This document shows positions 14,197-60,404 of a stretch of 64,000 nt of DNA, one piece after another. The notes below the pieces were generated by a model. That model ran no database searches. It saw nothing but the letters and a program-made list of their open reading frames with translations, and had not been told where the DNA came from. The DNA is taken from the NCBI RefSeq assembly GCF_031998825.1, contig NZ_DAMACX010000001.1:46665-110664 (forward strand), given 5' to 3'. How positions within the stretch are numbered: position 1 is the first letter of the stretch; every line of letters begins with the position of its first letter. Position numbers and translations under genes: made by a program. Source of the DNA: Pseudescherichia sp. Lineage in GTDB: Bacteria; Pseudomonadota; Gammaproteobacteria; Enterobacterales; Enterobacteriaceae.

Positions 14197-14335
14197 GTCT
14201 GTTTTTTTAAGGCTCGTAATTAATTGTCAATGCGAGTAGAGTGCACCGCCATAAACTTGGCGGTGAATCGAGTTTTTGATACTTTCAGACACCGTTTTTG
14301 TAAATAAGTGAAAGTTTTCAGGTGACCACGTTTTG

Positions 14336-14357
14336 AAACGTGATAACCGTCAAACAA
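14336..14357 (+). promoter_or_regulatory. CRP-binding site of the ptsG P1 promoter
   Basis: aaacGTGAtaaccgTCAaacaa matches the remembered E. coli ptsG CRP site (AAACGTGATAGCCGTCAAACAA) at the same distance from the start codon. Confidence 0.5.
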
Positions 14358-14369
14358 ACTTAGGGCGAT

Positions 14370-14394
14370 TTATTTTACTCTGTGTAATAAATAA
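14370..14394 (+). promoter_or_regulatory. Mlc (DgsA) operator overlapping ptsG promoter
   Basis: TTATTTTACTCTGTGTAATAAATAA, a palindromic TTATTT...AAATAA element identical to the remembered E. coli ptsG Mlc operator. Confidence 0.55.
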
Positions 14395-14491
14395 AGGGCA
14401 CTTAGATGCTCTGTCCAGGGCGCGGTTCTCCCCCCGTGCCAATGCGTGAAAACGTACAAAAAAGCACAAATACTCAGGAGCACTCTCAATT

Positions 14492-15925
14492 ATGTTTAAG
14501 AATGCATTTGCTAACCTGCAAAAGGTCGGTAAATCACTGATGCTGCCCGTTTCCGTACTGCCCATCGCAGGGATCCTGCTTGGCGTCGGTTCGGCAAACT
14601 TTACCTGGCTTCCAGAAGTGGTTTCCCATGTTATGGCAGAAGCGGGCGGTTCCGTTTTTGCTAACATGCCTCTGATTTTCGCTATCGGTGTTGCGCTTGG
14701 CTTCACCAATAACGATGGCGTGTCTGCGCTGGCGGCAGTGGTTGCCTATGGCATTATGGTGAAAACCATGGCCGTGGTTGCGCCGCTGGTGCTGCATCTG
14801 CCTGCGGAAGAGATCGCGGCGAAACACCTGGCGGATACCGGTGTTCTCGGCGGGATCATCGCGGGTGCGATTGCTGCCTACATGTTTAACCGCTTCTACC
14901 GTATCAAGCTCCCTGAGTATCTGGGCTTCTTCGCCGGTAAGCGTTTCGTGCCGATCATCTCTGGTCTGGCTGCGATCTTCATGGGCGTGATCCTCTCCTT
15001 CATTTGGCCACCGATCGGTACGGCTATCCAGACCTTCTCCCAGTGGGCTGCTTACCAGAACCCGGTTGTGGCGTTTGGTATCTACGGCTTCATTGAGCGC
15101 TGCCTGGTACCGTTTGGTCTGCACCACATCTGGAACGTTCCTTTCCAGATGCAGATTGGTGAATACACCAACGCGGCAGGCCAGGTCTTCCACGGCGATA
15201 TCCCGCGCTATATGGCAGGCGACCCGACCGCAGGTAAACTCTCCGGTGGCTTCCTGTTCAAAATGTACGGCCTGCCGGCTGCTGCGATTGCCATCTGGCA
15301 CTCTGCAAAACCGGAAAACCGTGCCAAAGTGGGCGGGATCATGATCTCCGCCGCGCTGACCTCGTTCCTGACCGGTATCACCGAGCCGATCGAGTTCTCC
15401 TTCATGTTCGTTGCGCCGATCCTCTACGCAATCCATGCGGTGCTGGCAGGTCTGGCCTTCCCGATCTGTATCCTGCTGGGTATGCGTGACGGGACCTCCT
15501 TCTCGCACGGTCTGATCGACTTCATCGTGCTGAGCGGTAACGGCAGCAAACTGTGGCTGTTCCCGATTGTCGGCCTGTGCTACGCGGCAATCTACTACAC
15601 CGTGTTCCGCGTGCTGATCAAAGCGCTTGATCTGAAAACGCCGGGCCGTGAAGACGCAACCGAAGATTCTAAAGCTGGCGCAACCAGCGAGATGGCTCCG
15701 GCGCTGGTCTCCGCCTTCGGTGGTAAAGAGAACATCACTAACCTCGACGCCTGTATTACGCGTCTGCGCGTGAGCGTGGCCGACGTGGCGAAGGTTGACC
15801 AGGCTGGCCTGAAGAAACTGGGTGCAGCGGGTGTGGTGGTTGCAGGTTCGGGCGTTCAGGCAATTTTCGGTACTAAATCCGATAACCTGAAAACCGAAAT
15901 GGATGAGTACATCCGCAACAGCTAA
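14492..15925 (+). CDS. ptsG: PTS glucose-specific EIICB component
   Basis: 477 aa, [33 protein letters not shown]... C-terminal EIIB has [13 protein letters not shown]. Confidence 0.97.
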
Positions 15926-15946
15926 TTTGCAGTCTGGGGAGACTGA

Positions 15947-15970
15947 GGGAGCCGCAAGGCTCCCTTTTTT
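15947..15970 (+). terminator. Intrinsic terminator of ptsG
   Basis: gggagcc-gcaa-ggctccc followed by T6. Confidence 0.8.
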
Positions 15971-16081
15971 ATTGCTTACCTTTTGGTAATTCATGCCCTT
16001 AAGGCGTAATCACTATGATAAGTAATAAATGGAGGCTAAGCTTTTCATACCTGTCTAATGCTGAAACAGAGAGTAATTTGT

Positions 16082-17185
16082 ATGTCTCAACCAACACTAT
16101 TTACCCCGCTACGCATCAGGAATCTGGAGATTGAAAACCGGATCGTGATCGCACCAATGTGTCAGTACTCTGCTGAAGAGGGATGCATGACTGACTGGCA
16201 CGTGATGCATCTGGGACAGCTGGCGCAATCCGGTGCGGGTTTACTGACGATTGAAGCCACCGCCGTCTCCCCTGAAGGGCGCATCACCTATGCTGATGTC
16301 GGTCTCTATGATGATAAGTCTGAGGCAGCCATGGCCCGGGTGCTTGATGCGGTCCGTAAATGGTCGGATATGCCGATTGCGATCCAGCTGGCTCACGCAG
16401 GACGGAAAGCATCGACCTACAAGCCGTGGGATAAACAGGGCCAAATCGCGCCTGACCAGCAGGGCGGCTGGCAAACGTTAGCGCCTTCCGCCGTTCCCTA
16501 CAGCTCGGGCTATACGCCTCCTACAGCGCTGGACAGTGCCGGGCTAGACGAGATCCGCACCCAGTTTGCCAATGCCGCGAAACGCGCTGCCAAACTGGAT
16601 ATCGATCTGATTCAAATTCACGCCGCGCATGGCTATCTGCTGCATCAGTTTCTGTCGCCGCTATCGAACCAGCGTACCGATGAGTACGGCGGCTCGCTGG
16701 AGAACCGTGCCAGATTCCCACTGGAAATTTTTGACGTAGTTCGGGAAGCCTTCCCGGCAGAAAAAGCGATCAGCGTGCGCATCTCCGCGACCGACTGGGT
16801 TGAGGGCGGATTCGATATTGCAGAGGCCGTGGCGTTTGCCAAAATGCTTGAGGCGCGTGGGGTTGATGCTATCCATGTTTCCAGCGGTGGTCTCCATCCC
16901 GACCAACAGATCGATGTCTATCCGGGCTATCAGGTTCCGCTAGCAAGAGCGGTGAAATCTGCGGTGAGCATTCCGGTTGTGGCCGTTGGACTGATCACCG
17001 AGCCGCAACACGCCGAGGCAATCGTCTCGAGCGGCGATGCAGATATTATCGGGATTGCACGCACGGCGCTGTACGATCCGCGTTGGCCCTGGCACGCTGC
17101 GGCGACACTGGGTGCACAGGTGCGGGCCGCCAGCCAGTACCTTCGTTGCCAGCCGCATACGCTTAAAAACCTGTTTAAGTCCTGA
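16082..17185 (+). CDS. NADH:flavin oxidoreductase, Old Yellow Enzyme family (YqjM/NamA-like)
   Basis: ORF 16058..17185. ATG 16082 gives MSQPTLFTPLRIRNLEIENRIVIAPMCQYSAEEG...HAAHGYLLHQFLSPLSNQRTDEYGGSLENR, typical OYE motifs. Confidence 0.85.
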   Translation: MSQPTLFTPLRIRNLEIENRIVIAPMCQYSAEEGCMTDWHVMHLGQLAQSGAGLLTIEATAVSPEGRITYADVGLYDDKSEAAMARVLDAVRKWSDMPIAIQLAHAGRKASTYKPWDKQGQIAPDQQGGWQTLAPSAVPYSSGYTPPTALDSAGLDEIRTQFANAAKRAAKLDIDLIQIHAAHGYLLHQFLSPLSNQRTDEYGGSLENRARFPLEIFDVVREAFPAEKAISVRISATDWVEGGFDIAEAVAFAKMLEARGVDAIHVSSGGLHPDQQIDVYPGYQVPLARAVKSAVSIPVVAVGLITEPQHAEAIVSSGDADIIGIARTALYDPRWPWHAAATLGAQVRAASQYLRCQPHTLKNLFKS

Positions 17186-17419
17186 CACAGCAGGTGGGGG
17201 CAACCCGCCTTTTCAGAGCGGGTGTGGTTGAGATGAGATAACCTGGAATTACGTGTACATCACTCAGGCCCTTATTGCGGGGCCTGCTTGAGTAACAGTT
17301 GCGCGACCTGTCGAGCATCGTCAGCGGCTGATCTATTTCCAGTTGCTGGGTCAGCGTGAACATAGCCAGAATGCGCTCCTGCGGGGTATCCGCCTTATTA
17401 CGTTCTGCCCGTAAGATAA

Positions 17420-18496
17420 CTACTCATTCCCAGGGACACCAGGACCAATCAATGTAGCCCTTACCTGAGGAAGACTCTGCGGATAATTTTGTTGAATAAA
17501 CTCAATCATTTTTTCCCGCACGTGACAGCGTAAATCGAAGGCCATAGGTGAATTTTGCGCCGTCATTAACAATCTGATTGTCATGCTCTTTTCAGTCGTA
17601 TCGGTAACCTGGAGGACCTGCGTTTGTTGATCCCAGAGTTTTGTTTCACTGAGCACCTTTTCAAAGTGTTTTCGAAGAGGCTCTAAGGGCATCGAATAAT
17701 CCAGATAAAGAAAAACAGAGCCTAAAATTTGTGCATTGTTACGCGTCCAGTTTTGAAATGGATTTTCTGTAAAGTAGGTAATCGGTAAGACCAGTCGGCG
17801 CAGATCCCAGAGACGCACTACAACATACGTCAGGTTTATCTCTTCAATCCAACCCCACTCTTTTTCAACCACCACAGCATCATCGATTTTTATGGGTTGC
17901 GTAAACGCTATCTGAATTCCGGCAAACAAATTGACAAGCGATTTCTGTAGGGCAAAACCAATTATTATTCCGGCAACCCCTGCACCGGCCAGGATGGTCG
18001 TGCCAAATTTTCTAACGCCAGGGAAGCTAAGTAGAATCAGTGAAAGACAGAACGTCACAAGCACAACAATAGCGACTTTCTTAACATACATTATCTGAGT
18101 GCGAATTTTGCGGGCACGAAGATTATTCGATATATTAATATCATAACGTATGAAAAGCATATCCTGTGCAACATTAATCAATCGAATCAGCACAGAGCAA
18201 AATGACAATATAATAAATATATTGATTGCAGTTATAATAAATAGAAAGGATTCAGGTTGAATGTGGACATAATTAACCCCTATGCGTATTAACAGCAGAG
18301 GAATGAAAAGAAACATTGATCCACGAAGGTGTTTCTCCAGTGATTTGAATAGCTTTCTGTCGCGACTCTGCCAGTAGCGGATGAATCGTAGAAGTATAAA
18401 TCTCGCGAGAAAACCTACCGCGAGCGAGAGAGTCACGACCAATACCGCAGGCACCCATGTCGGCGCGACAGATAACTCACCAAATAAAAAAGACAT
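17420..18496 (-). CDS. Mechanosensitive ion channel family protein (MscS-like)
   Basis: 358 aa with several N-terminal TM segments, then ...GVAGIIIGFALQKSLVNLFAGIQIAFTQPIKIDDAVVVEKEWGWIEEINLTYVVVRLWDLRRLVLP..., the MscS pore helix/beta-domain signature. Visibly AT-rich. Confidence 0.8.
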   Translation of the reverse strand: MSFLFGELSVAPTWVPAVLVVTLSLAVGFLARFILLRFIRYWQSRDRKLFKSLEKHLRGSMFLFIPLLLIRIGVNYVHIQPESFLFIITAINIFIILSFCSVLIRLINVAQDMLFIRYDINISNNLRARKIRTQIMYVKKVAIVVLVTFCLSLILLSFPGVRKFGTTILAGAGVAGIIIGFALQKSLVNLFAGIQIAFTQPIKIDDAVVVEKEWGWIEEINLTYVVVRLWDLRRLVLPITYFTENPFQNWTRNNAQILGSVFLYLDYSMPLEPLRKHFEKVLSETKLWDQQTQVLQVTDTTEKSMTIRLLMTAQNSPMAFDLRCHVREKMIEFIQQNYPQSLPQVRATLIGPGVPGNE

Positions 18497-18916
18497 TGTT
18501 TCCCCTTATATCCTGCCAACAACCCTATATTATTTGTTCGGTAAAAATCTTTCATCTTACTCTTGAAGCTAATCACTATATTAGCCTGCTTTACGCGCAT
18601 TTTTAGAAGAAAAGGATGAAAATCTTGCCTGTAAAACTTAACGAGGATGTGTAACGTGCTGAGTAGTAAAGGAGCCTTTATTTTGCGACAGCGAGGCGTT
18701 ATGCGTGGCGCGCCGCAACATAGAGAGAATGGACGCAGTAGAATGGCCGTGGCGCTTGAGGCTTTTTGCCTCATAACGTTGAGGTGGTAAAGATGTGGTG
18801 AGGCAGAAAGAAGAAAGCCCCGAAGGTCATTTTTCAATTAACCAACGAGGCCTACTCTATGCCTGGACAACATCAGAGTAGCCGTTTACCCGCCGCAAGG
18901 CGGAGAAGAAGGCTAT

Positions 18917-20430
18917 TGTTAACGCCAGGCTGTAATATCCCCTTTAAACCATCCTAAAATGTCCCCGTCGATTTTTCGGGGATATTTTTCATGCGCAAAG
19001 AGACAGTTACAATGAGCTATAAGGAACTCGACAGGCTTCAGATTATTCAGGGCTCTGTGAACAGACATATTACTCAGGAGCAGGCAGCATTGCGTATGGG
19101 TATATCTGTTCGTCAGGTTAAAAGACTGGTGAACCGGTACCGAAATGAAGGACCTGCCGGTCTGGTTTCTCGCCGTCGCGGGAAGCGACCCAATAATGCA
19201 TTTACTCCTGAATTCAAAGCGGCTGTTATATCTCTCCTGAAAGAACGTTACTCAGATTTCGGTCCCACTCTTGCCGGTGAGAAACTGCGCGAGGTTCACG
19301 GCTTATCTCTATCAACTGAAACACTCAGAAAGTGGATGGTGGAGGAAGGGTTGTGGCGGGAACGTCGGCGTAAAATTGCCCGAATCTACCAGCGCCGCAT
19401 GCGTCGTCCTTCGTACGGCGAACTGATCCAGATTGATGGGTCTCCTCATGACTGGTTTGAGGCACGAGGTCCGCGATGTACCCTAATTGTCTTTATTGAT
19501 GATGCCACCAGTGCCCTGATGGCGCTGCGCTTCGCCCCGCGGAAACGACCCGTGCTTATATGGAGACGCTCCGGGGATACCTCACAGATCATGGGGTACC
19601 CCTGGCTCTCTATTCGGATCGGCACAGTATATTTCGCGTAAATAACCCGGAGCGCGAAGGGGAGCTGACCCAGTTTACCCGGGCGATTAAGATCCTGCGT
19701 ATAGAGCCCATTCATGCCAACACGCCTCAGGCAAAAGGTCGCGTTGAGCGGGCAAACCAGACGCTCCAGGACCGGCTGGTAAAAGAACTGCGCCTTCAGG
19801 GGATCAGCGATATCGAAACGGCAAACGCATGGTTGCCGGAGTTTATTGAAGCGTATAATAACCGCTTTGCCACCGCACCCCGTGACTCTGCTAATGCCCA
19901 TCTCGATGTACACCATTCGGAAGAAGAGCTGAACCATATCTTCAGCTATCAGGCGAAACGAGTTCTCTCAAAAAACCTCACCTTTCAGTACAAAACCAGT
20001 GCGTTCCAGATACGCAGTGAAGGGCGCGGTTACCGGCTCCGTAATTCAGTTGTTACCGTGTGTGAGAGTTTTGAAGGAGAGATTGCTGTTCTGTATGAGG
20101 GCAGGGCACTGGGCTGGGAAAAATATGTCGACGGACCTGAACCCATACCTCTTGACGACGAAAAAAGCGTCCACGAGCGGGTGGACAGGGCCCGGGTAAA
20201 TCTGCGCTCAAAATACTATGTCAAACCTAAAGCAGATCATCCCTGGCATACCCGCAGAACGCAAAGTCATGAACAGGCAAAGCCGCCACGATTACCTGCA
20301 AGGAAATCGGATATGGATAAACCGGACTGAAACTAAACGCACAGGGTTGAATGCATACAAGGTCAAAGCGTAGATAACTGTGCTGTGTTTCTGACGTTTT
20401 TGTTTGGGTGGTAGCCACTATTTTAACGGT
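18917..20430 (+). mobile_element. Degraded ISNCY (IS1202-group)-like insertion sequence; ends not defined
   Basis: Contains the frameshifted transposase below. I could not identify terminal inverted repeats, so the boundaries are approximate guesses. Confidence 0.35.
18991..20330 (+). pseudogene. ISNCY-family (IS1202-group) transposase, split by a 1-nt frameshift
   Basis: ORF 18991..19641 (HTH ...QEQAALRMGISVRQVKRLVNRY...IQIDGSPHDWFE...LIVFIDDATSALMALRFAP) continues in another frame as ...AETTRAYMETLRGYLTDHGVPLALYSDRHSIF...QAKGRVERANQTLQDRL (DDE integrase core; ORF 19560..20330). The two frames join at ccccGcggaaacg (about 19539), consistent with loss of one base. Confidence 0.8.
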
Positions 20431-20496
20431 AGCGCGTCAGAAGAGCACTCAGCTGGTTATAGCAGTAGGTTTCTCGCAAGGCAGGGTAGAAGCGTA

Positions 20497-21798
20497 TCAC
20501 TGAACTGAGATGTGATGAATTCGGAATGCATCGTTAGGTGATGTTGTGAAGACAATCACCTGACGATATTTCAGACTACCGAGTCTTAACTGCTGTTCCA
20601 TCATATCGTAGTAGTGGTACATCTTTTTACCTGTATCGAGCTCAACAATATACAAGCCAAGTATAGATTGACCAATAACTGGGGTAAATGCAATTTTCAG
20701 CACCTGAAATTTTGCTGCAAAATTGAGTAGATAAGGTGATGGGAAGTTCGGACGAATCACCCCATCACTGAGGGATAAGTGACCTTTGAGGACGACATCT
20801 CCAACGACATAATTCCCTACATCTACCTCATGGAATAGAATGCGGGCACGCGAAGAGGAGCTTAAGTGCCTGACCGTTAAAATTTGCTCGGCTCTCCTCT
20901 CTGGAGTTAGTAGCTGACTCATAGCCAAATCAACGCTTTCCTTTAAAATTCCCAACTTATATGTCGCTAATGTGTGTTGATCATAACTGAACTTATTTAT
21001 GCTAGGTGCCTTAGGGTAGAGAGTTTGCCGATCAAAGCCCCGTTGATTGTATTGTAAAGTATCGAAGTGCTCACCAATTGACCCAATATAACGAGCATTC
21101 ACCGTCATAGTATTCAACCGGGCAACTCCCAAATAAAGTGATGCTAAATTCTTAGCTCGATCTTGCGAAGTGGGGAGTGGACCAAAGCCTAGTGAACTAT
21201 AGAACCTCCAGATGGCTTTTTTGTCGCGAAATCGGTAGTCATTTCGTTTAACAATAGATAGATAAGGCTCTAATACCATTTTACGGTCGAGCCAGTTATT
21301 TCTTTTTAGAGCAAAACCCCAATTGAAACCCGCATGTATAAGCCTCTGTTCGTTATTTTTTTGGTATTCAAGTGAAGTGTGGTACTCAGGACCACAGCAG
21401 GTCACCATGCCGACTTGATTGTTACTCAGATAAGTTCGAACCAGAGCATTGAGAAGTTGAAAATAATGAGGCTGGACGACTAAATCATCCTCAAAGAAAA
21501 AGGCGTATTCTGCCTGGAGTTCTTCAAATACAAATCGCTCAGCACGGTCATAATTTAGAGCGATACCAATATTTTCCCGATTAGAGTGTACCACTCCCAA
21601 AGGAAAATACGATTGAAAGAGTTGGACGCACTGATCAGTTAATGCAATTTCATCTTGCTCTAGTCTCGGCCCGTCCTGAAACAAATGATATGTAAATTGG
21701 TGATGTTCAACAAGATCTTGCTGACTTAGGCTATCTAATACTGTTTGTAGATATTGTGGGCGATTATAAGACAAAATCACAACAGGCACTTCATTCAT
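20497..21798 (-). CDS. GT-A fold glycosyltransferase (EDD motif) with unassigned C-terminal domain
   Basis: ORF 20497..21801 with ATG at 21798. N-terminus VPVVILSYNRPQYLQTVLDSL...AFFFEDDLVVQPHYFQLL resembles GT2/GT13 (GnT-I-like EDD) nucleotide-sugar transferases. The last ~200 aa have no motif I recognise. Start overlaps the upstream stop (ATGAATGA). Confidence 0.7.
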   Translation of the reverse strand: MNEVPVVILSYNRPQYLQTVLDSLSQQDLVEHHQFTYHLFQDGPRLEQDEIALTDQCVQLFQSYFPLGVVHSNRENIGIALNYDRAERFVFEELQAEYAFFFEDDLVVQPHYFQLLNALVRTYLSNNQVGMVTCCGPEYHTSLEYQKNNEQRLIHAGFNWGFALKRNNWLDRKMVLEPYLSIVKRNDYRFRDKKAIWRFYSSLGFGPLPTSQDRAKNLASLYLGVARLNTMTVNARYIGSIGEHFDTLQYNQRGFDRQTLYPKAPSINKFSYDQHTLATYKLGILKESVDLAMSQLLTPERRAEQILTVRHLSSSSRARILFHEVDVGNYVVGDVVLKGHLSLSDGVIRPNFPSPYLLNFAAKFQVLKIAFTPVIGQSILGLYIVELDTGKKMYHYYDMMEQQLRLGSLKYRQVIVFTTSPNDAFRIHHISVQ

Positions 21799-22393
21799 CA
21801 ATCAGCACCTTGTGTAGGACTCTGGTTTGATTGAGTGTATTGTGGAACGCCAAGCGACCATGCAGAGAAGAGTGATTATCCACTATTAATCCATCACCAG
21901 CCTCAAGCTTGATTTTGAGTACATTTTTCTTGAGTTCAGCTACAAATGCTAACCAAGCATCTAGAAAATATTGAGAACGCACCTTCTCAATACTGCGGTA
22001 ATTGTGAGGGACACGAATAATATCGTTAGAGTAAATTTGATAGGTACATCGATTACCAACTTTTTCATGGGCTACGCTTTCCTTATTTAAAACCTCGAGG
22101 ATATGTGGTGACACACATCTACTCACATTGCCAATCAGTAAAGACTCTCCTCCAACAGGGGCCGGACTCTCACAAAATAATAAGAGATAGCGTGGAGGTA
22201 CAGGGCTCCAGAAAATATCAGTATGAGGTGGTACCAGGATGTTTGAATGCTCTACTGTCCCTGCTCCCTGAAACTTTATAGTTTTGGTAGAAAAAATCTT
22301 ATGGTGAGGTAAGTACGACCTAAGTGTCGAAATATTGCCCACATCTTTCAAATGCACCCAGCCCTCTACGGCTAACCGTTCCGATATATTCAC
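21791..22393 (-). CDS. TauD/TfdA-like Fe(II)/2-oxoglutarate dioxygenase (short form)
   Basis: 200 aa, GTG start in a GTGA overlap with the upstream stop. Has ...NILVPPHTDIFWSPVPPRYLLLFC...GGESLL...IVDNHSSLHGRLAF (HxD...H facial triad plus Arg pattern of the TauD family). Confidence 0.7.
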   Translation of the reverse strand: MNISERLAVEGWVHLKDVGNISTLRSYLPHHKIFSTKTIKFQGAGTVEHSNILVPPHTDIFWSPVPPRYLLLFCESPAPVGGESLLIGNVSRCVSPHILEVLNKESVAHEKVGNRCTYQIYSNDIIRVPHNYRSIEKVRSQYFLDAWLAFVAELKKNVLKIKLEAGDGLIVDNHSSLHGRLAFHNTLNQTRVLHKVLIDE

Positions 22394-23691
22394 TTAGAAG
22401 CCTTAGTTGTATGAATGCGATATAAATATCTTGGGCTATCTTCAGGAATATTATCTCGCCCATGCAACATTCGTTTGTTATCAACGAATAGCGCCTCGCC
22501 AGGCTTTAGTCTTAATATAACCTGTTCAGCATGAGAAATTGACGATTCAAGTGCCTGAAGTGCAACTATTTGTGTTTCACTATAATTATCAAGTAACAAC
22601 CAACGTGTATAGTAGATCTCATCTGACGTTGCACCTGGTCTTAAAATAGGATAAATATCTGTTTTAAAACGCTTATAAAGTGGAAAGCCAATGTGCGTTT
22701 TACGGAGTATCTCGCGGGTACTTTCGGGAAGGGATTCAATTAGTGGCTTACAATCAATCAGAACACTGCTACCTACATGCGGATCTTGTCTAATGCAATA
22801 CCAAGCTACGGTGTTAACCAGTGGTGAATCTGTATGAGGGGACAAGGATTCTGGCTTGTTAAACTTCAGTTTCGACTCATTATTTAATTTAATATCAGAT
22901 ATGGTTTTTACACTACCAAGATGCTCGTTAATATCTACATATTGCTCAAAGCTTAACTCCTGCTTAATGTGGCAATAACCATGTTGTTGCAACTCGCCTT
23001 CAACATAAGTAGCGAGTTGATCCACACTCTTCATCTTTATAGATTGTGGTTTCGGCTCATTTACAGCTAGCATTTTTATTATCTCGATAACTTGCTCTTT
23101 TGATTTTCCTTCACTGAACACCAAGCGAGCAGGTAGCGAATACAATAAAATCGTTTCTGTAATTTCAAATCGCTTAGAGTAGGAGTTAAAAAAAGCTTGG
23201 CTATTCTCTAACAGAGCTTTACTTGTAACTTGATTCCGTTCGTAAGATGGCGTTGGGACATGGTGAATATAACGTCCATAGTTATCATAGCACCAGCTTT
23301 GATACTCATAACTAAAAGTTAAAAACTGGTGCCAGAATTCATCGATGATGCCCGACATCATAGCACCATGGCCAGTTTCAACCCAACGTTCAAATTCTTC
23401 AAATAGGTAGTATGGATTATCCTCTATAAGTTTCAGAATCGTAGGGTGAGTCGTCTTTCGAAGGACTTTTAACGTACGTTCACACACCTCCCGAATCCGA
23501 TAAGACTTAACGTAGTGTTCAGGTTTATCAGCATACTTTAGAAAGAAATTGTCCGCTTTAATGAATGGATGTATTTCTTTGGTGAGATCGCTGTATTGTT
23601 CAGGCAGATAACCAGGCAGGTAATCCGATAGTTTTTTTGGAAGATTTCCCTTTGATTGATAGACTGCGAAGCTTAATTGTTTCAAAATCAT
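22390..23691 (-). CDS. Fusion protein: N-terminal GRDP/DUF1399-like domain + C-terminal TauD-like Fe(II)/2OG dioxygenase
   Basis: ORF track gives 22390..23805 from a TTG. I prefer ATG 23691 (MILKQLSFAVYQ...) because AGGGA lies 6 nt upstream and the TTG extension overlaps the peptide ORF. C-terminus has ...SLSPHTDSPLVNTVAWYCI...FVDNKRMLHGRDNI. N-domain has IDEFWHQFLTFSYEYQSWCYDNYGRYIHHVP. Confidence 0.65.
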   Translation of the reverse strand: MILKQLSFAVYQSKGNLPKKLSDYLPGYLPEQYSDLTKEIHPFIKADNFFLKYADKPEHYVKSYRIREVCERTLKVLRKTTHPTILKLIEDNPYYLFEEFERWVETGHGAMMSGIIDEFWHQFLTFSYEYQSWCYDNYGRYIHHVPTPSYERNQVTSKALLENSQAFFNSYSKRFEITETILLYSLPARLVFSEGKSKEQVIEIIKMLAVNEPKPQSIKMKSVDQLATYVEGELQQHGYCHIKQELSFEQYVDINEHLGSVKTISDIKLNNESKLKFNKPESLSPHTDSPLVNTVAWYCIRQDPHVGSSVLIDCKPLIESLPESTREILRKTHIGFPLYKRFKTDIYPILRPGATSDEIYYTRWLLLDNYSETQIVALQALESSISHAEQVILRLKPGEALFVDNKRMLHGRDNIPEDSPRYLYRIHTTKASK

Positions 23692-23734
23692 GGCATATCC
23701 CTGATTATTGCCTGGAGTAGGTCGCTTGAGTGAG

Positions 23735-23875
23735 TTATCGATCCCAGCCGCAATCATTGCAGTTGCTGTGACACTGATTGCATTCACTGCTCTCCGTATT
23801 TTCAATCATTGCACTAGCAACTGAATCCAAGTCAATGTTATGAGCTTGCTTGATTTCTTCAACTGTGTTTTCCAT
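23735..23875 (-). CDS. Unannotated 46-aa Cys-rich peptide (candidate RiPP precursor)
   Basis: Reverse complement reads ATGGAAAACACAGTTGAAGAAATCAAG...TGCGGCTGGGATCGATAA = MENTVEEIKQAHNIDLDSVASAMIENTESSECNQCHSNCNDCGWDR. AAGG lies 9 nt upstream of the ATG. Same strand as, and 43 nt upstream of, the dioxygenase gene. Below the ORF-track size cut-off. Confidence 0.5.
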   Translation of the reverse strand: MENTVEEIKQAHNIDLDSVASAMIENTESSECNQCHSNCNDCGWDR

Positions 23876-24491
23876 CTTTTAGTACCTTAAATTTTATTCA
23901 TATAGTGACGGAAAGAATCTATACAGCATTCTTTCACTTAGTACCTAAGAGAATCTTCGATTAAGCCTACATTCCCGTATAGACATAAAGCGCTCCCTCA
24001 GATTCAAAGACGGGCTGATTTTAAATATATACCCTTTTGTTAGATTATAATATTTTGTTCTCAGATTCAACCAGCAAACTAATGGCGAATTTACGGTTTT
24101 CTGGAAGACCGGTCTTGAACGAGATGGTGAGCTGAAAGTCGATTTGGGGAGCTGTACGATACGCTTCCTGCACAACATAGGCGGTAATGGACATCAGTTC
24201 GGGTCAGTAAAAGTGCCATCAAAAAAGCGCATGCAATGATGAACATCTTTGGTAATCACGGAAAGCAAGAAGTCTTAATACTTGCATATCTCTAACAGCA
24301 AACGTATGCACTTGATGACTACGCAGGTCATCGCCTTTAATGAAATATCTTTGCTCCAAAATTCCGTTCTAACCGCGAGCAGCATATCTGGCATGGGCCA
24401 TCGGGGAACAGGTCAGCGGAAACGGCTGAAATTATCCCGCATTACGCTGGCACCAGCTTAGGGCTGGCGACCAGCTTGAAGGGAGCTTCAG

Positions 24492-25481
24492 CTATTGGTT
24501 TCTGAAGAAAGCGGTCCTTGAAAGGGTCATTTGCGTCTGGCAGTCGACCATTTTCTTGACTTCAGCATCTGTTCCCTGCATTGAAACTTTGCCGCACATG
24601 GCATCCTTAGTTTTGATCCACTGGCGCTGAGAAGGTAGTAACTCTTTTTTCTTCGCCGGCGTTAACGTGCTCCAGGTGGTATTCAAATCAGAGTCGGCAT
24701 TCGCAAATGCCATTCGGGACTGATCAAGGCTGCCAGCTTTTTGTTGCTGAGGCTGCTGGTAGGATTGTTGTGGAATGGTTTGCTGAACCTGCTGCTCTGC
24801 CTTTTCTTGCGCCTGAAGCTGTGTCTGCCTCTCAATTTGCTGATCACGCTCATACTTCGCCTGTTGCTGCGCCCTGAGTTGTGCCTGTTGTTCCGCTTCA
24901 ATTTGAATCTGCTGGGCATCCTTAGCCTGCTGGATTTTCTGCTGCTCAACGATCGGGTTGATGATGGAAAGCGATGTCAGTGCAGCGGCACCCACTGATA
25001 TCGGATTATCAGAAGAGGCTTTTACAAAAACGATTTTTTGATCGTCGGTCGCCTGCGCGGTGTAGGAGATGCGTTTTGAAAAGGCGTTTGCGTTGTTATC
25101 CAATGACAGGCTTTCCATTTGCTTGTCGAGATTACGGTTAAAGTTCTTTCTGTAAGCATCAGAAAGCTGGGTGTAGTCGTTGGCAGGTAAGGTCATCGTC
25201 ACGGTCCCTTCACAGGTTTTCATTGTGCTGCCCGTGTCACTTGAGGTTGTGGAAATTTCAGAGATGACCAGTTTGATCTTGTCTAAAGCGCTTCGTTTGG
25301 TCTGATTAGTGACGTCAGGGTATTTGTCGACCTGTTCAGAGAGTCCTTCATAAGCAGATTTTTTTAATAAATCCATGAGAGCTGACTGGGTCATTTCAGA
25401 GGAACAACCGATCACGTCTTTTTTGTTATCACAGCCTGTAATGGCAACGGCGAGTAAGAGTGCTGAGTATTTTAATCTCAT
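24492..25481 (-). CDS. Lipoprotein with Gln-rich coiled-coil linker and C-terminal DUF1311 (LprI-like) domain
   Basis: MRLKYSALLLAVAITGC-D lipobox with Asp at +2. Central QQ(A/E/K)-rich low-complexity stretch. C-terminus ...LPSQRQWIKTKDAMCGKVSMQG...VDCQTQMTLSRTAFF resembles DUF1311. Confidence 0.7.
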   Translation of the reverse strand: MRLKYSALLLAVAITGCDNKKDVIGCSSEMTQSALMDLLKKSAYEGLSEQVDKYPDVTNQTKRSALDKIKLVISEISTTSSDTGSTMKTCEGTVTMTLPANDYTQLSDAYRKNFNRNLDKQMESLSLDNNANAFSKRISYTAQATDDQKIVFVKASSDNPISVGAAALTSLSIINPIVEQQKIQQAKDAQQIQIEAEQQAQLRAQQQAKYERDQQIERQTQLQAQEKAEQQVQQTIPQQSYQQPQQQKAGSLDQSRMAFANADSDLNTTWSTLTPAKKKELLPSQRQWIKTKDAMCGKVSMQGTDAEVKKMVDCQTQMTLSRTAFFRNQ

Positions 25482-26142
25482 GAGTTCCCTTTAGAGTAAG
25501 GATTGGCTTTTGAGAGGCGGCCTGTAATCAGTCCGGAGGGCTAAAGTAAACAGCACTGACACTGAACGCATCACAAGCAAGGACCAAGGTGATATCGGCA
25601 AAAGCTGTGAAATCTTTAATTCAGCTGATGAGAAAGGTATGCGCAGGGTACTGTAACAATGATCCCGAAGCCGGAAAACTGCAAGGCAGGTTCTCGCTGC
25701 TGAACTTAATAAAGGTCAGGGTAAAGCCAGCGCAGGCGCACCGTTTATGACCTTTCATCTGTGCTAATCCACACAGCCGTTCAGATCGGTGGTTTCTTCG
25801 CTGGTGTATTTGTTATGGCGAGTCTCATTTGACCTAATCCTACTTATCACCTTTATTAAAAAGGGGGGATTACTCCACCTCCGCGGAACACGATAAGAAT
25901 TTCATTGAAAGTTGTTCTTGGCTCATATGACCTGCTCCCTTCAAAGCAATGCAGACCGAGCTTAGAAGCTTCCGTTTTTGGCACTAAGTGGACATTCATT
26001 GCTTTAAATCTGACTGTAGCTACTTAATCCATCCTTCCTGTTTTAGATAGTGCTGCTTTGATTTTGGTGGCATCCACCGCGGCGCAATCCTGCGGCAGGA
26101 TGGAATCGAAGCGGGCGCATAAGGCGTTAACCAGGTGTGCGT

Positions 26143-26165
26143 GGCGAGGCGAGGCGAGGCGAGGC
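26143..26165. repeat. Pentanucleotide tandem repeat (GGCGA)x4 + GGC
   Basis: gtGGCGAGGCGAGGCGAGGCGAGGCc read directly. Lies inside a non-coding/degenerate stretch. Confidence 0.85.
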
Positions 26166-26500
26166 CTACTTGCCGATCACCACTAAGCGCATCGGCAGTT
26201 CCGGGCGTTTGATCACGGCGTCGTGATACGCGGGCATGATGAATGAGCAGATAAGACTCAGACTTATCTGCTAAAAATATCAGCTTCTGATGGTTGTTAA
26301 GCTCCTGCCCGGATTCAGGAACCTTGCTGACTTATTTATCTCACTGGTTTACCTCTGTACGAAACCCGCTGCAAGGCGCAGACAGCTCACCAGCTATATG
26401 ACTGGTTCCGTGATGAGATAGGCATTGAGCTACGCGCCGAGCATGGCGATTACCAGCTACAGAGCTGCAAAATTCGGCCTGCGATTGTAAAAGAAGACTG

Positions 26501-26521
26501 ACCGCCTCCGGGCGGTTTTTG
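26501..26521 (+). terminator. Intrinsic terminator after a gene remnant
   Basis: accgcc-tccg-ggcggt followed by ttttt. It follows an orphan reading-frame tail ending ...HQLYDWFRDEIGIELRAEHGDYQLQSCKIRPAIVKED* (no start codon). Confidence 0.6.
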
Positions 26522-26653
26522 CTTCCTTTTACATTGAGTAGCCTAAGCGTTCTCATCTGTATCACCAAAATTAGTAGGATTTTCCTTAGGTTGTTGCTTT
26601 GCTGTGTTACATCTTGTAATGATTGTTGCGCCTTAAATAACAAGCACATAACC

Positions 26654-27103
26654 ATGAAAACCTTAAAAGGGATTAGCAGCTTATTACTGCTGTTATCTGC
26701 ACACAGCAACGCAGCCTGGCAAGAGCGCGAGCTCAACACCTGGTATGAGAAAGACAAAGTTTTATACGACATCACGCAAACTGTCGATGACAATCCTGTA
26801 ATGATAAGCATCGCTCAGGCTGACTATAAAACAGCTAATCTTGCTGTTTCGTATATGTCTAATGGAGGATGTTCAGACCATACCCAGTCGCTAAGAATTA
26901 ATAACACCATTGTGCCTGCTGCTTATAAGTGTGTACCGGTGGGGAAGAATAAAATTGAGCATTACATTGTCGATGACGCTGATAAGGTCAACGCCCTTGT
27001 AGGGCATCTGGAATCAGACTTTACGGCAGTGATTCAGGGAGACATCAAAGTCTGGGCGGCCAATATCAAGTCGCCGAAGTACGGAATGGCCCCGAAATTT
27101 TGA
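26654..27103 (+). CDS. Secreted hypothetical protein (signal peptide)
   Basis: ORF 26519..27103. ATG 26654 gives MKTLKGISSLLLLLSAHSNA-AWQERE..., a classic Sec signal. No family recognised. Confidence 0.6.
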   Translation: MKTLKGISSLLLLLSAHSNAAWQERELNTWYEKDKVLYDITQTVDDNPVMISIAQADYKTANLAVSYMSNGGCSDHTQSLRINNTIVPAAYKCVPVGKNKIEHYIVDDADKVNALVGHLESDFTAVIQGDIKVWAANIKSPKYGMAPKF

Positions 27104-27120
27104 CGGAACTGCTGAACGTA

Positions 27121-27142
27121 AACCGCCTACGGGCGGTTTTTT
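27121..27142 (+). terminator. Intrinsic terminator
   Basis: aaccgcc-tac-gggcggtt followed by tttt. The stem is nearly identical to the terminator at 26501. Confidence 0.7.
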
Positions 27143-27366
27143 ATTGGTAGCAAAACGAGAGGCGCTATGTCAGTAGAAGGCAGCTATAACCCGGGCAAGC
27201 TCCGCGAAGGTGGAACAAGCAGACCGATCGTAAATAGCAGGCATTACACAGAGGCATCCCCGGGGCACTTGATTATGAAAATTACGAGGCCCTATCATTT
27301 TTGAGGTATAGGAATAATCTCAGGCTGGTGATATTAAATAACCACAAAAAAAGTGGAGATCTGGTC

Positions 27367-27630
27367 TTGAAAATTTTAGGGTTAGATGAGCAAAGAACAC
27401 TTCGTGGGAGTGGAGTGTTGAAGTTTTTTGAGCTTGAGCGCGTTCCAAATAGTGACTGGGTTGAGATATTTGAAAGCCTGTTCACTCAGGAAAACGAGAA
27501 GACGTGGGTTGAAGGATATTGCCTAGTCACTAGTTGCCCCACGAGTGAGGTGCCAGCCCGCCTCAAGCTGATTGAGGAAAAATGCGTTTTGGCGAATGAG
27601 CTTTTAAAGAAACGACTTCCTTCTCTGTAG
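27367..27630 (+). CDS. Hypothetical small protein (start uncertain)
   Basis: ORF 27301..27630 has no ATG start. TTG 27367 is preceded by GGAG (8-nt spacer). Product ...KILGLDEQRTLRGSGVLKFFELERVPNSDWVEIFESLF... has no recognised family. Confidence 0.3.
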   Translation: MKILGLDEQRTLRGSGVLKFFELERVPNSDWVEIFESLFTQENEKTWVEGYCLVTSCPTSEVPARLKLIEEKCVLANELLKKRLPSL

Positions 27631-27706
27631 CTCATCAACTTTGAAGCCGCCTACGTGAACTGCACCCAAACAGTTGGATACCCAACGAAATAAGGTGCAG
27701 TTTTTT

Positions 27707-27841
27707 ATGAGCAAATATTCTCTCAGCTTTAAGCTTGAGGTTGTGCAGCACTATCTTTCCGGACCGGAAGGGCAGAAAGCGACTGCAAAACGTTTTGGTA
27801 TCGATCACAGTGCCGTTCGTAAGTGGTTTCCCTGCACCTGA
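27707..27841 (+). pseudogene. IS3-family transposase OrfA N-terminal fragment
   Basis: MSKYSLSFKLEVVQHYLSGPEGQKATAKRFGIDHSAVRKW then FPCT*. This is the HTH module typical of IS3-family orfA, truncated after about 40 codons. No orfB follows. Confidence 0.65.
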
Positions 27842-27973
27842 CGGTGGGAGAGGAAAGCATGGTTGTAAGAGAAGGCTGTTCGGCAATAGCCCGGACTGAT
27901 GAGCCGCACAGCTATGCCTGCGCGGGAGATGACGCACTGATTTTTACCATGACGGTGAGCGAAAGGGCGCGAT

Positions 27974-28003
27974 AAGAAAAGGAATGGCGGACTATACCGC
28001 CAT
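27974..28003 (-). terminator. Probable intrinsic terminator of sugE
   Basis: Minus strand: atggcgg-tatagt-ccgccat followed by tccttttctt. Confidence 0.5.
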
Positions 28004-28014
28004 CCCGTAAAGCG

Positions 28015-28329
28015 TCAGGACGCCAGTTTCATCATGATGAGACCGGCTACGATTACTGCCGCCGCCAGTATACGCATCAGCGAGGCCGCCTCTCCCAGAA
28101 AATACAGCCCTGCGATAAACGAGCCGACTGCACCGATCCCGGTCCAGATGGTATAGGCCGTCCCCAGCGGCAGCGAGCGCATCGCGGTCGCCAGCAGTAC
28201 AAAGCTGGCTATCATGCCGGCTACGGTTACAGTCGTGTACAGCGGCCGCGTAAAGCCTTCAGACAGCTTCATTGAATACGCCCATACCACCTCAAGTACA
28301 CCTGCGGCAACCAGTAATAACCACGCCAT
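28015..28329 (-). CDS. sugE: SMR-family guanidinium exporter (SugE/Gdx)
   Basis: 104 aa, MAWLLLVAAGVLEVVWAYSMKLSEGFTRP...GTAYTIWTGIGAVG... with the conserved membrane Glu (LEVVW). 4-TM SMR. Confidence 0.9.
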   Translation of the reverse strand: MAWLLLVAAGVLEVVWAYSMKLSEGFTRPLYTTVTVAGMIASFVLLATAMRSLPLGTAYTIWTGIGAVGSFIAGLYFLGEAASLMRILAAAVIVAGLIMMKLAS

Positions 28330-28348
28330 AGTTACTTCTCCTCTTAAT

Positions 28349-28398
28349 CACCGGGTCGTCCCGTCAGAGGCCATCATTGTGCACGGGTCGTCCCGACA
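28349..28398 (-). promoter_or_regulatory. Guanidine-II (mini-ykkC) riboswitch
   Basis: Leader RNA reads GUCGGGACGACCCGUG-CACAAUGAUGGCCUCUGA-CGGGACGACCCGGUGAUUAAGAGGAGAAGUAACUAUG. It has two CGGG-ACGA-CCCG hairpins (ACGR tetraloops) 20 nt apart, the second abutting the SD of sugE. Confidence 0.7.
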
Positions 28399-28425
28399 CG
28401 GCCGGAATTTGGCAGACAGGTTTTC

Positions 28426-29064
28426 TCATCCCTGTGCAGCGGCAAGCCGGGCTGCAAAACCGATAAACAGCAGCCCTGTGAGCGAGTTGCCCAGCCTGAC
28501 CAGGCGTCTGCGCGTGCCCAGCCAGCGGGCAACAGCTGCGCCGGCCAGCAGTAAAAACGTCATCCATGACAGACTGATCAACTGCAGCACTGCGCCCAGC
28601 AGGCTGAACGCGGCGGCGCTGTGTGCCGATGATGGATCTATAAACTGAATAAAAAAAGAGACATAGAACAGAATTGACTTCGGGTTCGTTATGCTCAGCA
28701 TAAACGCCTTAAGAAAGTAGTTTTCTTTCCTGATCGCCGGTACGTTACCGGCTTCCCGGGGCTGATGCAGGGCGGACCAGATGATTTTTATGCCAAGCCA
28801 GCTCAGAAAGAGAGCGCCCAGGTACTTGATGGCGGTGAAAACATGCGGGCTCGCCTGGATCAGAGTGGCTATACCGGCCCATGCCAGAAAAATAAGGAAC
28901 ACGTCCCCGAGCACAACGCCGGCGACGCCCCGGTACGCGGCGCGTATTCCGCGGCTTATTCCCGTGCGCAGTACGTACAGGCTGTTGGGACCCGGGACCA
29001 TTACGATAACCAGCGCGCCGGCGAGAAATGTCCAGAAATTGACCACGCCATAGTCATGAAACAT
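28426..29064 (-). CDS. LysE/RhtB-family amino-acid exporter, LeuE-like
   Basis: 212 aa, MFHDYGVVNFWTFLAGALVIVMVPGPNSLYVL...NPKSILFYVSFFIQFID...GFAARLAAAQG. Aligns along its length with remembered E. coli LeuE (YeaS). Confidence 0.85.
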   Translation of the reverse strand: MFHDYGVVNFWTFLAGALVIVMVPGPNSLYVLRTGISRGIRAAYRGVAGVVLGDVFLIFLAWAGIATLIQASPHVFTAIKYLGALFLSWLGIKIIWSALHQPREAGNVPAIRKENYFLKAFMLSITNPKSILFYVSFFIQFIDPSSAHSAAAFSLLGAVLQLISLSWMTFLLLAGAAVARWLGTRRRLVRLGNSLTGLLFIGFAARLAAAQG

Positions 29065-29126
29065 TTGTTACCTCTCTTACTGCATATGTGAAACAGGAAT
29101 AGCGCCCGAACCGTGTACCGTGCCCG

Positions 29127-36662: not shown

Positions 36663-36763
36663 TTCACAATGTCATTTTCCAAAAAAAGAAAATGATAAAC
36701 TTTGCTTTGCTGGCACACTCCTTATATTTTGTTCTTATACCCTATGACAAGAGAGTCACTGAT

Positions 36764-39558
<2,795 letters not shown>

Positions 39559-47699: not shown

Positions 47700-47888
47700 C
47701 TGTTATGAGAAATTAGTATCAGCATCACACACTGCTCACTGAATGGCATTATTCATAGTGCCAGTTCTTCCATCGTCCCTGGCAGTAGGGATAAAACCAT
47801 GCAATACACTTCACATTTCAGTAAAAGAACCTCCAGCACTAACAGTGTTTGTGCTGTACTGATATTGTGGACGACATAACTGGGTAAG

Positions 47889-48725: not shown

Positions 48726-49204
48726 GTTGACGCCGATGTATTAGTAACTCCGGCATTTTTGTCTTAAGCGAACGCGCATATTATCAGGCCTGGACCTGCT
48801 TCTCTTTTCCTGGGCATTAAACGATATCGTTCTGTACAAGGCCGCAACGGTAAGCGTAAGGCTGGTAACAGGTAGTGACGGAGGAATGACAGCCACAGAG
48901 ATTGTGGATCATATGGTTTTCATGGATCAACCATCGCGGAGCAGTAGGCTGGTTAATTTCAGAGTGCGGAAATGTTCCTGCGAAAGATGTGCTGACGGTT
49001 TTCCTGAGAGACCATAATCACTGGCAGGAATGTTATTCTGATGACGACTTATCAGGCGGCTTCAGTGGACGTTATGAGCGAGCACTCTAAGCCTGCATGG
49101 CGTTACTCATTTCGCGGTGGATTAACAGGGAGCAGAGCAGGTCAACTTGCGGCCAGGTGCGGTGCCCCCCAGCCTCAGCGGCTCAGCACAAAAAGGAAGA
49201 ACTG

Positions 49205-60393: not shown

Positions 60394-60404
60394 ATGAGTA
60401 TGAG

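Follow-up and report, generated by a model that had tools for sequence, protein, structure and literature searches.

What does a 46-residue, cysteine-rich peptide have to do with the two oxygenases and the glycosyltransferase whose genes follow its own? The question is raised by a compact, AT-rich four-gene cassette in a 64,000-nt stretch of Pseudescherichia sp. DNA (the window, to whose full length all positions refer). It was first put by a sequence-only reading, in which a model given the letters and a list of open reading frames (ORFs) proposed a pathway of the type that makes RiPPs (peptides synthesized on ribosomes and then modified post-translationally). The peptide linkage and the selection on the peptide bear this proposal out, while the enzyme triad as a unit and a truncation by an insertion sequence (IS) have to be dropped from it. 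On balance we think it likely that the cassette is a self-contained, horizontally mobile peptide-modification system of an undescribed kind, with the 46-residue peptide as the precursor and the product of gene 2 as its partner. The components are the following.

23876-24101, minus strand: conserved non-coding 5' region, presumed promoter and 5' untranslated region, defined by cross-genus DNA homology
23735-23875, minus strand: peptide gene, 46 aa, sequence MENTVEEIKQAHNIDLDSVASAMIENTESSECNQCHSNCNDCGWDR
23786-23875, minus strand: leader part of the peptide, residues 1-30, MENTVEEIKQAHNIDLDSVASAMIENTESS, which varies between loci
23735-23785, minus strand: core of the peptide, residues 31-46, ECNQCHSNCNDCGWDR, with the stop codon, invariant across loci
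22390-23691, minus strand: gene 2, 433 aa counted from ATG
22987-23691, minus strand: N-terminal helical domain of gene 2, residues 1 to ~235, UCP032817-like/GRDP-like (precomputed Pfam PF27765)
22390-22986, minus strand: C-terminal TauD/clavaminate-synthase-like Fe(II)/2-oxoglutarate (2OG) oxygenase domain of gene 2 (Pfam, Foldseek, motif)
21791-22393, minus strand: gene 3, 200 aa, GTG start, a short TauD-type Fe(II)/2OG oxygenase (Pfam TauD 57.6 bits, 2.5e-15, cut-off 27)
20497-21798, minus strand: gene 4, 433 aa counted from ATG
20929-21798, minus strand: GT-A catalytic domain of gene 4, residues 1 to ~290 (AlphaFold2 [AF2] model, Foldseek)
20497-20928, minus strand: cassette-specific C-terminal domain of gene 4, residues ~291-433, with the stop codon (predicted local distance difference test score [pLDDT] below 50)

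All four closely packed minus-strand ORFs of the sequence-only reading were found where it had placed them, and the three junctions that it described are exact: 43 nt separate the peptide stop from the gene-2 ATG at 23691, with AGGGA 6 nt upstream of that ATG; GTGA at 22390-22393 is common to the ends of genes 2 and 3; and ATGAATGA at 21791-21798 is the overlap of genes 3 and 4. Its remark on AT-richness also holds: the GC content is 0.39-0.41 between 21 and 24 kb, most of the window has 0.55-0.66, and the Pseudescherichia chromosome has 55-60%. The span that it gave, 20497-23949, does contain the four genes, but the conserved module reaches from about 20483-20499 to 23953-24101, and we have corrected its extent. 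The four-gene form of the cassette measures 3.6 kb and a two-gene form, described below, 1.5 kb. A Shine-Dalgarno-like AAGG lies about 10 nt ahead of the peptide ATG; a consensus scan of 23876-24101 yielded no sigma-70 site, and no Rfam family was matched (E up to 1).

The first step is to decide whether the small ORF is a gene. An upstream ORF of 46-54 aa precedes the gene-2 homologue at every fetched locus that has upstream DNA, including loci where gene 2 is 33-47% identical to that of the window, and the gap between the two is 43, 15, 0 or -4 nt depending on the locus. A degenerate DNA pattern of the core added three metagenome loci to the collection, and a protein search with the peptide added four leader types. 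All 16 distinct peptide sequences (16/16) end in the same 15 residues, C-N-Q-C-H-[S/D]-N-C-N-D-C-G-[W/Y]-D-R, in which the cysteines are spaced 2-3-2. Over the 17-codon core, amino-acid changes are limited to four positions (S30, E31D, S37D and W44Y), and the pairwise synonymous divergence (pS) is 0.27-0.73 when the window is compared with its three closest relatives, other pairs having typical values of 0.6 to above 1. Because the core residues are fixed while synonymous differences are near saturation, the peptide ORF is a real gene under strong purifying selection. The sequence-only reading had staked its proposal on finding a conserved small ORF upstream of the homologues and on such selection, and both are there.

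The peptide alignment has a clear bipartite, leader/core pattern, and the core does not change even at loci with unrelated leaders and a gene 2 of 33-37% identity. A helix-like leader motif, N-[IV]-D-[LM]-x2-[VI]-A-x-[AS]-M, is common to close and distant four-gene loci, and the two-gene loci have Lys-rich leaders unrelated to it. The single Ser of the core is not conserved, S37 being Asp in the glycosyltransferase (GT)-bearing Marinobacterium copy, and the core has no invariant Ser or Thr. In having a short precursor gene co-located and co-conserved with a modifying enzyme, the cassette agrees with the generic definition of a RiPP locus. Haem attachment at the CXXCH of the core was considered and rejected: the weak PSCyt3 and Haem_bd Pfam matches do not reach the cut-off, and a signal peptide is absent.

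The peptide gene is hidden in public records because gene-2 calls often begin inside the peptide ORF, an annotation habit that may explain why the system escaped notice. In the window, the gene-2 ORF can be extended to 471 aa from a TTG at 23805, crossing the peptide ORF in another frame (23692-23805, minus strand), and public calls use such upstream starts (P0001, 455 aa; P0004, 465 aa). The 46-aa gene is uncalled in the NCBI Kluyvera record (L001), yet called on the equivalent Logan contig (L002).

Which of the enzymes belongs to the peptide? The sequence-only reading treated the enzyme triad as the constant unit, a claim that fails at seven loci (L020, L021/L022, L023 and L024-L026), where the peptide is accompanied by gene 2 only, at 33-38% identity. 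These loci represent at least four independent contig families, their GC content is 27-36%, and neither gene 3 nor gene 4 is present on their contigs of 2.7-8.5 kb. Since the seven loci carry just these two genes, the peptide and gene 2 form the constant pair, in which gene 2 is the class-defining partner; genes 3 and 4, which come and go jointly, are accessory.

Kluyvera, Vibrio parahaemolyticus, Marinobacterium and many metagenome contigs carry this gene order with the same peptide, a recurrence far in excess of chance. By blastn, the cassette DNA is 87% identical in Kluyvera sichuanensis, 85% in Marinobacterium weihaiense and 80% in V. parahaemolyticus; upstream, the homology extends in the window to 24101, 24070 and 23953, respectively, and then gives way to unrelated flanks. 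The cross-genus homology begins 80-225 nt upstream of the peptide and ends within 2-14 nt of the gene-4 stop, and the conserved module consists of exactly four genes in four genera, at 80-87% nucleotide identity. The 3' end of the cassette does abut an IS, as the sequence-only reading had noticed, with a split transposase about 165 nt away; its suggestion of a truncation does not stand, since the cross-genus homology stops at the gene-4 stop. The four-gene cassette is therefore complete, self-contained and untruncated by the IS. An integron cassette was rejected on similar grounds, given that a homology reaching no farther than 2-14 nt from the gene-4 stop leaves no shared attC.

The flanks differ from genome to genome: a glyoxalase gene and SymE/AIDA genes in Kluyvera, an acyl-CoA synthetase-like gene in Vibrio, and an integrase and AlpA in Marinobacterium. 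Cassette copies adjoin integrases, IS elements or plasmid genes, and at one locus (L006) an IS cuts the GT gene, on a contig that bears ParAB. With one module in four genera, different flanks each time and mobile neighbours, the horizontal acquisition put forward by the sequence-only reading is confirmed, and the cassette has spread recently between gammaproteobacterial families. More distant four-gene loci (L009-L012), in which gene 2 is 46-47%, gene 3 about 36% and gene 4 about 40% identical to the window, keep the overlapping arrangement and sometimes lie beside an integrase. The family is rare: 5.8 billion clustered proteins include no more than 14 relatives of gene 2 at E <= 1e-3, and a gene-2 profile found only Marinobacterium and one standalone-domain locus among the GTDB representative genomes. 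Megablast of the cassette gave no match in the PLSDB plasmids or in any complete E. coli genome, and the DNA pattern of the peptide was unmatched in the IMG/VR viral contigs. In Kluyvera (L001, 12890-17398), a SymE-type toxin gene lies about 1.6 kb from the cassette and is followed by an AIDA-type autotransporter with a TibC-like heptosyltransferase; this copy sits in a typical mobile or virulence-island context, unlike the neighbourhoods of the other copies.

Gene 2 is a fusion of two domains. Its C-terminal half is modelled with confidence by AF2, matches Pfam TauD over residues 250-426 (40.2 bits, 4.9e-10, cut-off 27), and finds TauD, clavaminate synthase (CAS), KDO1, AtsK, BBOX1 and AsnO as best Foldseek matches (E about 1e-10). 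H286-x-D288, H410 and R412 are invariant in 13 gene-2 homologues, so that profile, fold, an intact HxD...H triad and the 2OG-binding Arg together place this domain in the TauD/TfdA family (PF02668). A PDB sequence search with gene 2 returned only marginal TauD-family matches. As the sequence-only reading had it, the cassette encodes two TauD-like enzymes and a GT-A enzyme: genes 2 and 3 score above the cut-off of Pfam TauD and gene 4 above that of Glycos_transf_2. Its concern that the enzymes might fall into small-molecule pathways was not realized; none belongs to a characterized small-molecule family, and in NCBIfam the cassette enzymes have only equivalog matches far below threshold, such as TmpA, GntD, BBOX, VioC and CAS, hydroxylases of amino-acid or ammonium compounds.

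The N-terminal domain of gene 2 is less easily recognized. The Foldseek result for the full model is dominated by the TauD domain and contains nothing on the N-domain, the local Pfam copy assigns no family to it (two weak winged-helix matches at E 0.03), and its profile finds only spurious cullin matches among the PDB sequences. A ten-row alignment, in which L020 represents the two-gene form and L014 a standalone protein, has D117, W120, C134, H143, H144 and P146 invariant and H108, H121 and E151 in at least 90% of rows. We searched 1.84 billion representative proteins with a profile of this domain, built from the alignment without L020 and L014. Only nine proteins matched the full domain at E <= 1e-18, and six of these reached E <= 1e-30; its central part, D-x2-W-H-x-F-[IL]-L-F-[TS]-x-E-Y-x2-[FW]-C-x3-[FY]-G-x-[FY]-[ILV]-H-H-x-P, was found in 1,117 mostly small proteins. 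In hhalign, the gene-2 domain matches this standalone family over residues 58-177 with 99.7% probability (E 3.9e-27), and motif and profile-level homology identify it as UCP032817-like (PF27765)/GRDP-like. The gene-2 domain itself falls short of PF07173 (GRDP-like/DUF1399), and one standalone relative matches that family at 3.8e-5, through which the GRDP/DUF1399 suggestion of the sequence-only reading is correct at superfamily level. In the literature searched, we found no biochemical function for the GRDP-like/UCP032817 family.

The standalone proteins provide a hint as to what this domain may do. Among the top 140 that carry the motif, 55 (39%) have at least three Cys within their last 40 residues, against about 1.3% expected from the proteins' own N-terminal Cys frequency (binomial P about 1e-65, which treats hits as independent, the exact value not to be over-read). 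Cys-Cys spacings in these tails peak at 2-4 residues, in surroundings made of Gly, Ser, Asp, Asn and Thr, as in ...NHCSYDCWNSGCMGHCR, ...DCNASCNASCGADC... and ...ACSNNCGQSNCNASC..., a style shared with the peptide core CNQCHSNCNDC and its 2-3-2 spacings. The same domain thus bears elsewhere, in cis, the kind of Cys-rich segment that the cassette supplies as a separate peptide, which speaks for a joint function of the gene-2 N-domain and the Cys-rich core. The tails look like built-in metal-binding tails, or else the proteins look like precursors with a large leader domain. Examples of such proteins within P0046-P0186 are P0047, P0052, P0120, P0127 and P0159; the tails are hypervariable and of low complexity.

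At L021 (330-5849), a standalone UCP032817-like gene with the tail ...NPCKSTDCR is followed after 8 nt by a gene for a 283-aa TauD-like protein (Pfam match at 5.4e-5 across almost the entire profile) and then by an S-adenosylmethionine (SAM) methyltransferase. Because the two are here separate adjacent genes, the pairing of a UCP032817-like domain with TauD recurs independently of the gene-2 fusion. That module also has a 1,179-aa nucleoside triphosphatase with faint DnaJ CXXCXGXG matches, and an IS1595 transposase separates it from a two-gene peptide cassette on the same contig. At L014 (6770-7865), the standalone-domain gene is followed by a TehB-like methyltransferase gene, beside that of a 170-aa CxxC-rich protein.

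Gene 3 and gene 4 complete the four-gene form. H57-T58-D59 and H178-G179-R180 of gene 3 are invariant in seven homologues, down to 30% identity; by profile and motif gene 3 is a TauD/TfdA (PF02668) enzyme, and it occurs only in four-gene loci. The protein of gene 4, 100% identical to WP_312409822.1, matches Pfam Glycos_transf_2 over residues 6-145 (25.8 bits, cut-off 23.3). The block-mean pLDDT of its AF2 model is mostly 77-98 to about residue 270 and about 60 by residue 290, and its best Foldseek matches are GnT-I 1foa (1.4e-11), POMGnT1, MGAT2 and SpsA. GLT25D1 and LH3 follow lower down, a match of generic GT-A similarity. A PDB sequence search with gene 4 returned nothing. Within the FFEDD motif, F101, F102, E103 and D105 are invariant and D104 is present in at least 90% of 24 homologues, and the fold together with this acidic DxD-type motif makes gene 4 a GT-A enzyme (GT2-like/GnT-I-like). 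Its C-terminal domain is absent from GT relatives outside the cassette, is conserved to residue 394 in the distant loci L009-L011, and is a candidate acceptor-binding domain.

How might these parts work together? The analysis establishes the genetic linkage, the selection on the peptide, the intact active sites, the limits of the module and its mobility. We infer that the peptide is the substrate, and what follows on the modified residues, the order of steps and the biological role is a working model. The helical N-domain of gene 2 would engage the Cys-rich core, and its TauD domain would oxidize core side chains. By analogy with AsnO, VioC, KDO1, CinX and SmaO, beta-hydroxylation of Asn, Asp or His would be the likeliest reaction. 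In the four-gene form, gene 3 would add a further hydroxyl group and gene 4 would glycosylate it, or alternatively a Cys or Asn; these are the simplest acceptors because genes 3 and 4 travel together and the core has no invariant Ser or Thr. The product may be a dense metal-binding or redox-active peptide, kept in the cell or exported by host functions. Since the core is invariant and neither protease nor exporter is present, an intracellular, cofactor-like or metal-binding product would fit better than a diversifying bacteriocin. We regard with more reserve, as a possibility of the second rank, the specific proposal that the UCP032817/GRDP-like domain recognizes or acts on Cys-rich segments and, with TauD, makes an O2-dependent core modification that leads to such a product; beta-hydroxylation or C-S cross-linking would be the candidate reactions, and in the four-gene form the new hydroxyl would then be glycosylated.

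Several points weigh against peptide modification. The closest characterized TauD/CAS-like relatives act on free or carrier-bound small molecules, and the nearest relatives of the gene-4 catalytic domain outside the cassette sit in polysaccharide GT clusters. No leader peptidase or exporter of the sort that a generic RiPP locus should have is encoded in the four-gene module or in the ~12 kb around it, no immunity gene travels with the module, and no double-Gly or other known cleavage motif is visible in the peptide. Most antimicrobial RiPPs show the opposite of an invariant core behind a variable leader. A RiPP recognition element (RRE) of the PqqD kind was not detected in the gene-2 N-domain with the local Pfam copy, apart from the weak winged-helix matches given above; residues ~49-106 of the AF2 model, which form a beta-beta-helix-helix-helix stretch, are no more than suggestive. 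The models themselves are weak at residues 131-156 of gene 2 and 295-433 of gene 4.

The cassette works like a RiPP cluster yet is a member of no described class, given that it lacks the defining enzymes of lanthipeptides, glycocins, ranthipeptides, multinuclear non-haem iron-dependent oxidative enzyme (MNIO) systems and graspetides. The sequence-only reading had claimed that no LanB/C/M, radical-SAM enzyme, leader peptidase, ABC exporter or immunity gene is present in the window, which is true of the module and, for all but the immunity gene, of about 12 kb around it, and that no described RiPP class has such a gene set; the literature searched indeed describes no such system, and contains no description of the core sequence, of UCP032817 or of the enzyme combination. 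Close to it in logic are the Fe(II)/2OG RiPP pathways of CinX (cinnamycin) and SmaO/SmaX (conversion of Asp to aminomalonate), in which Asp hydroxylases act on RiPP precursors and can be fused to a second enzyme (SmaO-SmaX) (PMC12186529). The cassette shares with them a small precursor gene beside an oxygenase and an Asp/Asn-rich core and, with SmaO/SmaX, an oxygenase fused to a second domain, a likeness of architecture only (PMC12186529). Its oxygenases are of the TauD/CAS type, the fused domain is UCP032817/GRDP-like rather than HD/DUF6817 (no HD_4 or DUF6817 match of the N-domain at E up to 10), and it has no place in the SmaO/SmaX cascade. Unlike these pathways, it has no LanM, ATP-grasp enzyme, PCAT (an ATP-binding cassette transporter that contains a peptidase) or GG leader, its core is invariant, and its oxygenase looks class-defining rather than tailoring. 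A lanthipeptide of the cinnamycin type does not fit, with no LanM or LanB/C gene in the module or within ~12 kb and a single, non-conserved Ser.

Glycocins (sublancin with SunA/SunS, glycocin F) likewise combine a Cys-containing peptide with a GT-A (GT2-like) enzyme of ~420-430 aa that has an extra C-terminal domain. Their two nested C-x6-C pairs differ from the 2-3-2 spacing of the cassette core, which has by its side neither a C39-peptidase ABC transporter nor a thiol-disulfide oxidoreductase; the GT is missing from the two-gene form, and the top 50 Foldseek matches of gene 4 include no SunS-type enzyme, all of which places the cassette outside the SunS-type systems. Pairs of a 2OG oxygenase and a GT-A transferase occur in hydroxylation-dependent glycosylation, on hydroxylysine in collagen (lysyl hydroxylase LH3/GLT25D1) and on hydroxyproline in Skp1 (PhyA/Gnt1). 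The oxygenases there are eukaryotic and of the prolyl 4-hydroxylase or JmjC type whereas gene 3 is of the TauD type, and the analogy is one of logic only.

Ranthipeptides/SCIFF and the QhpC gamma-subunit resemble the peptide in their conserved C-terminal part and in closely set Cys among Asp, Asn, Ser and Thr, and SCIFF cores are highly conserved. These systems need a radical-SAM maturase, and no cassette copy has a radical-SAM gene; its enzymes depend on O2. PqqA and mycofactocin MftA are also very small ORFs with a near-invariant C-terminal motif, directly upstream of oxidative enzymes, and they need no exporter, their product being used inside the cell, as we propose for the cassette. They differ in using radical SAM chemistry with a PqqD-type RRE and in being broadly distributed and chromosomal, whereas the UCP032817-TauD cassette is rare and mobile. 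Finally, plant GRDPs (glycine-rich domain proteins, PF07173/DUF1399) share a W-H...C...G-R-x-I-H-H-type motif and the order of domain and then low-complexity, Gly/Cys-rich region; in comparison with GRDP-like proteins, the fusion of the domain to an oxygenase is specific to the cassette family.

Could the peptide instead be a working part of the enzyme? It might be a non-substrate metal-binding (Cys4-His) partner or cofactor carrier of the UCP032817-TauD protein, doing for it what the Cys-rich tails do for the standalone proteins, with the enzymes acting on another substrate, a small molecule or a protein. The strict invariance of the core is what one expects of a metal or cofactor site and not of a diversifying natural product, the cis tails of the standalone proteins suggest that the Cys segment is a working protein part, the module lacks protease and exporter, and TauD/CAS-like relatives mostly use small molecules. 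Yet the same tails are hypervariable and of low complexity, unlike a structural metal site, and 30 variable residues before a conserved end of 16 is the layout of a precursor. Four Cys in 11 residues without further scaffold correspond to no known stable metal-binding fold, and the cassette is not linked to candidate genes for a small-molecule pathway. We consider this explanation unlikely, though the likeliest of the competing ones.

If the peptide is a substrate, its chemistry may also differ from hydroxylation. The TauD-type domains could form O2-dependent C-S cross-links from Cys to neighbouring Asn/Asp (C35-x2-N38, C42-x2-D45) and so yield a polycyclic peptide, an aerobic counterpart of the thioether formation by radical-SAM enzymes in ranthipeptides or of the QhpC type. 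Every core Cys, Asn and Asp is invariant, the close Cys among Asn, Asp, Ser and Gln resemble ranthipeptide/SCIFF cores, the named hosts are all aerobes or facultative aerobes, and C-S bond formation is known for isopenicillin N synthase, an iron oxygenase of the same superfamily. Such chemistry is not known of any TauD-family enzyme, however, and hydroxylation is the default chemistry of the closest characterized relatives, AsnO, VioC, KDO1 and GntD; we rate cross-linking, and with it the parallel to the radical-SAM systems, as improbable.

More doubtful still is a role in defence or as a toxin, with the cassette as a mobile module whose peptide, as such or modified, would act inside the cell against phages or competing elements. 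The variable mobile contexts, with integrases, IS, plasmid ParAB, SymE and a Dam-like methyltransferase, and the lack of an exporter would suit it; but no protein matched a PADLOC model (E up to 0.1), the peptide pattern was not found in viral contigs, and the neighbours differ in every genome, with no consistent defence-island signature. Least probable of all is a regulatory leader (Cys-codon attenuation, sulfur sensing) or an irrelevant ORF before a small-molecule or polysaccharide operon: the four Cys codons, the polysaccharide clusters of the GT relatives and the classical link of TauD enzymes to sulfur starvation speak for it, but the non-Cys core residues are equally invariant despite saturated synonymous change, gaps of 43, 15, 0 and -4 nt are too short to hold an attenuator, neither a terminator-like nor an Rfam element occurs and the two-gene form has no GT, so that attenuation is largely refuted.

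The surroundings of the window copy contain two further features next to the cassette.

18991-20330, plus strand: IS-type transposase in two overlapping ORFs in different frames (HTH_29/HTH_32, 18991-19641; rve_3, 19560-20330)
24492-25481, minus strand: predicted lipoprotein, 329 aa, with a signal peptide ending ...ITGC and a C-terminal LprI (lysozyme-inhibitor) domain

The split transposase, which begins about 165 nt past the gene-4 stop, is either a frameshifted (degraded) copy or one with a programmed frameshift. The LprI-like lipoprotein has a long Gln-rich coiled stretch and lies outside the module common to other genera, in a stretch (24-28 kb) with a GC content of 0.45-0.48. In this part of the window, the match to E. 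coli is restricted to the ptsG/ycfH end (14000-15972, ~84%), downstream of which lies the cassette region, and the ~14 kb after this end have no megablast match in 5,426 E. coli genomes. The interval 16000-30000 resembles a variable region and holds an Old Yellow Enzyme (OYE)-type flavin reductase, an MscS channel, the IS, the cassette, the LprI-like gene, ORFs without Pfam match, LysE and a GntR-aminotransferase regulator. Within ~12 kb of the cassette there is no RiPP maturase, leader peptidase or peptide exporter, the neighbours being housekeeping, IS and unrelated transport genes. Other AT-rich stretches of the window (GC 0.39-0.45, at 36001-37000, 46001-49000 and 60001-62000) may be acquired segments.

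What is new here is the precursor family and the architecture of the class-defining enzyme; the logic of peptide plus maturase is already familiar. The core is conserved to a degree otherwise found mainly in cofactor precursors. If the peptide is modified, the system would be a new RiPP-like class, defined by an enzyme in which a TauD-type oxygenase is joined to the UCP032817/GRDP-like domain. As the cassette is small and already occurs in relatives of E. coli, its chemistry is directly testable by heterologous expression. Should the model prove true, the cassette would open the first biochemical approach to the UCP032817/GRDP-like superfamily, whose bacterial members number over 1,000, and perhaps to the plant GRDPs.

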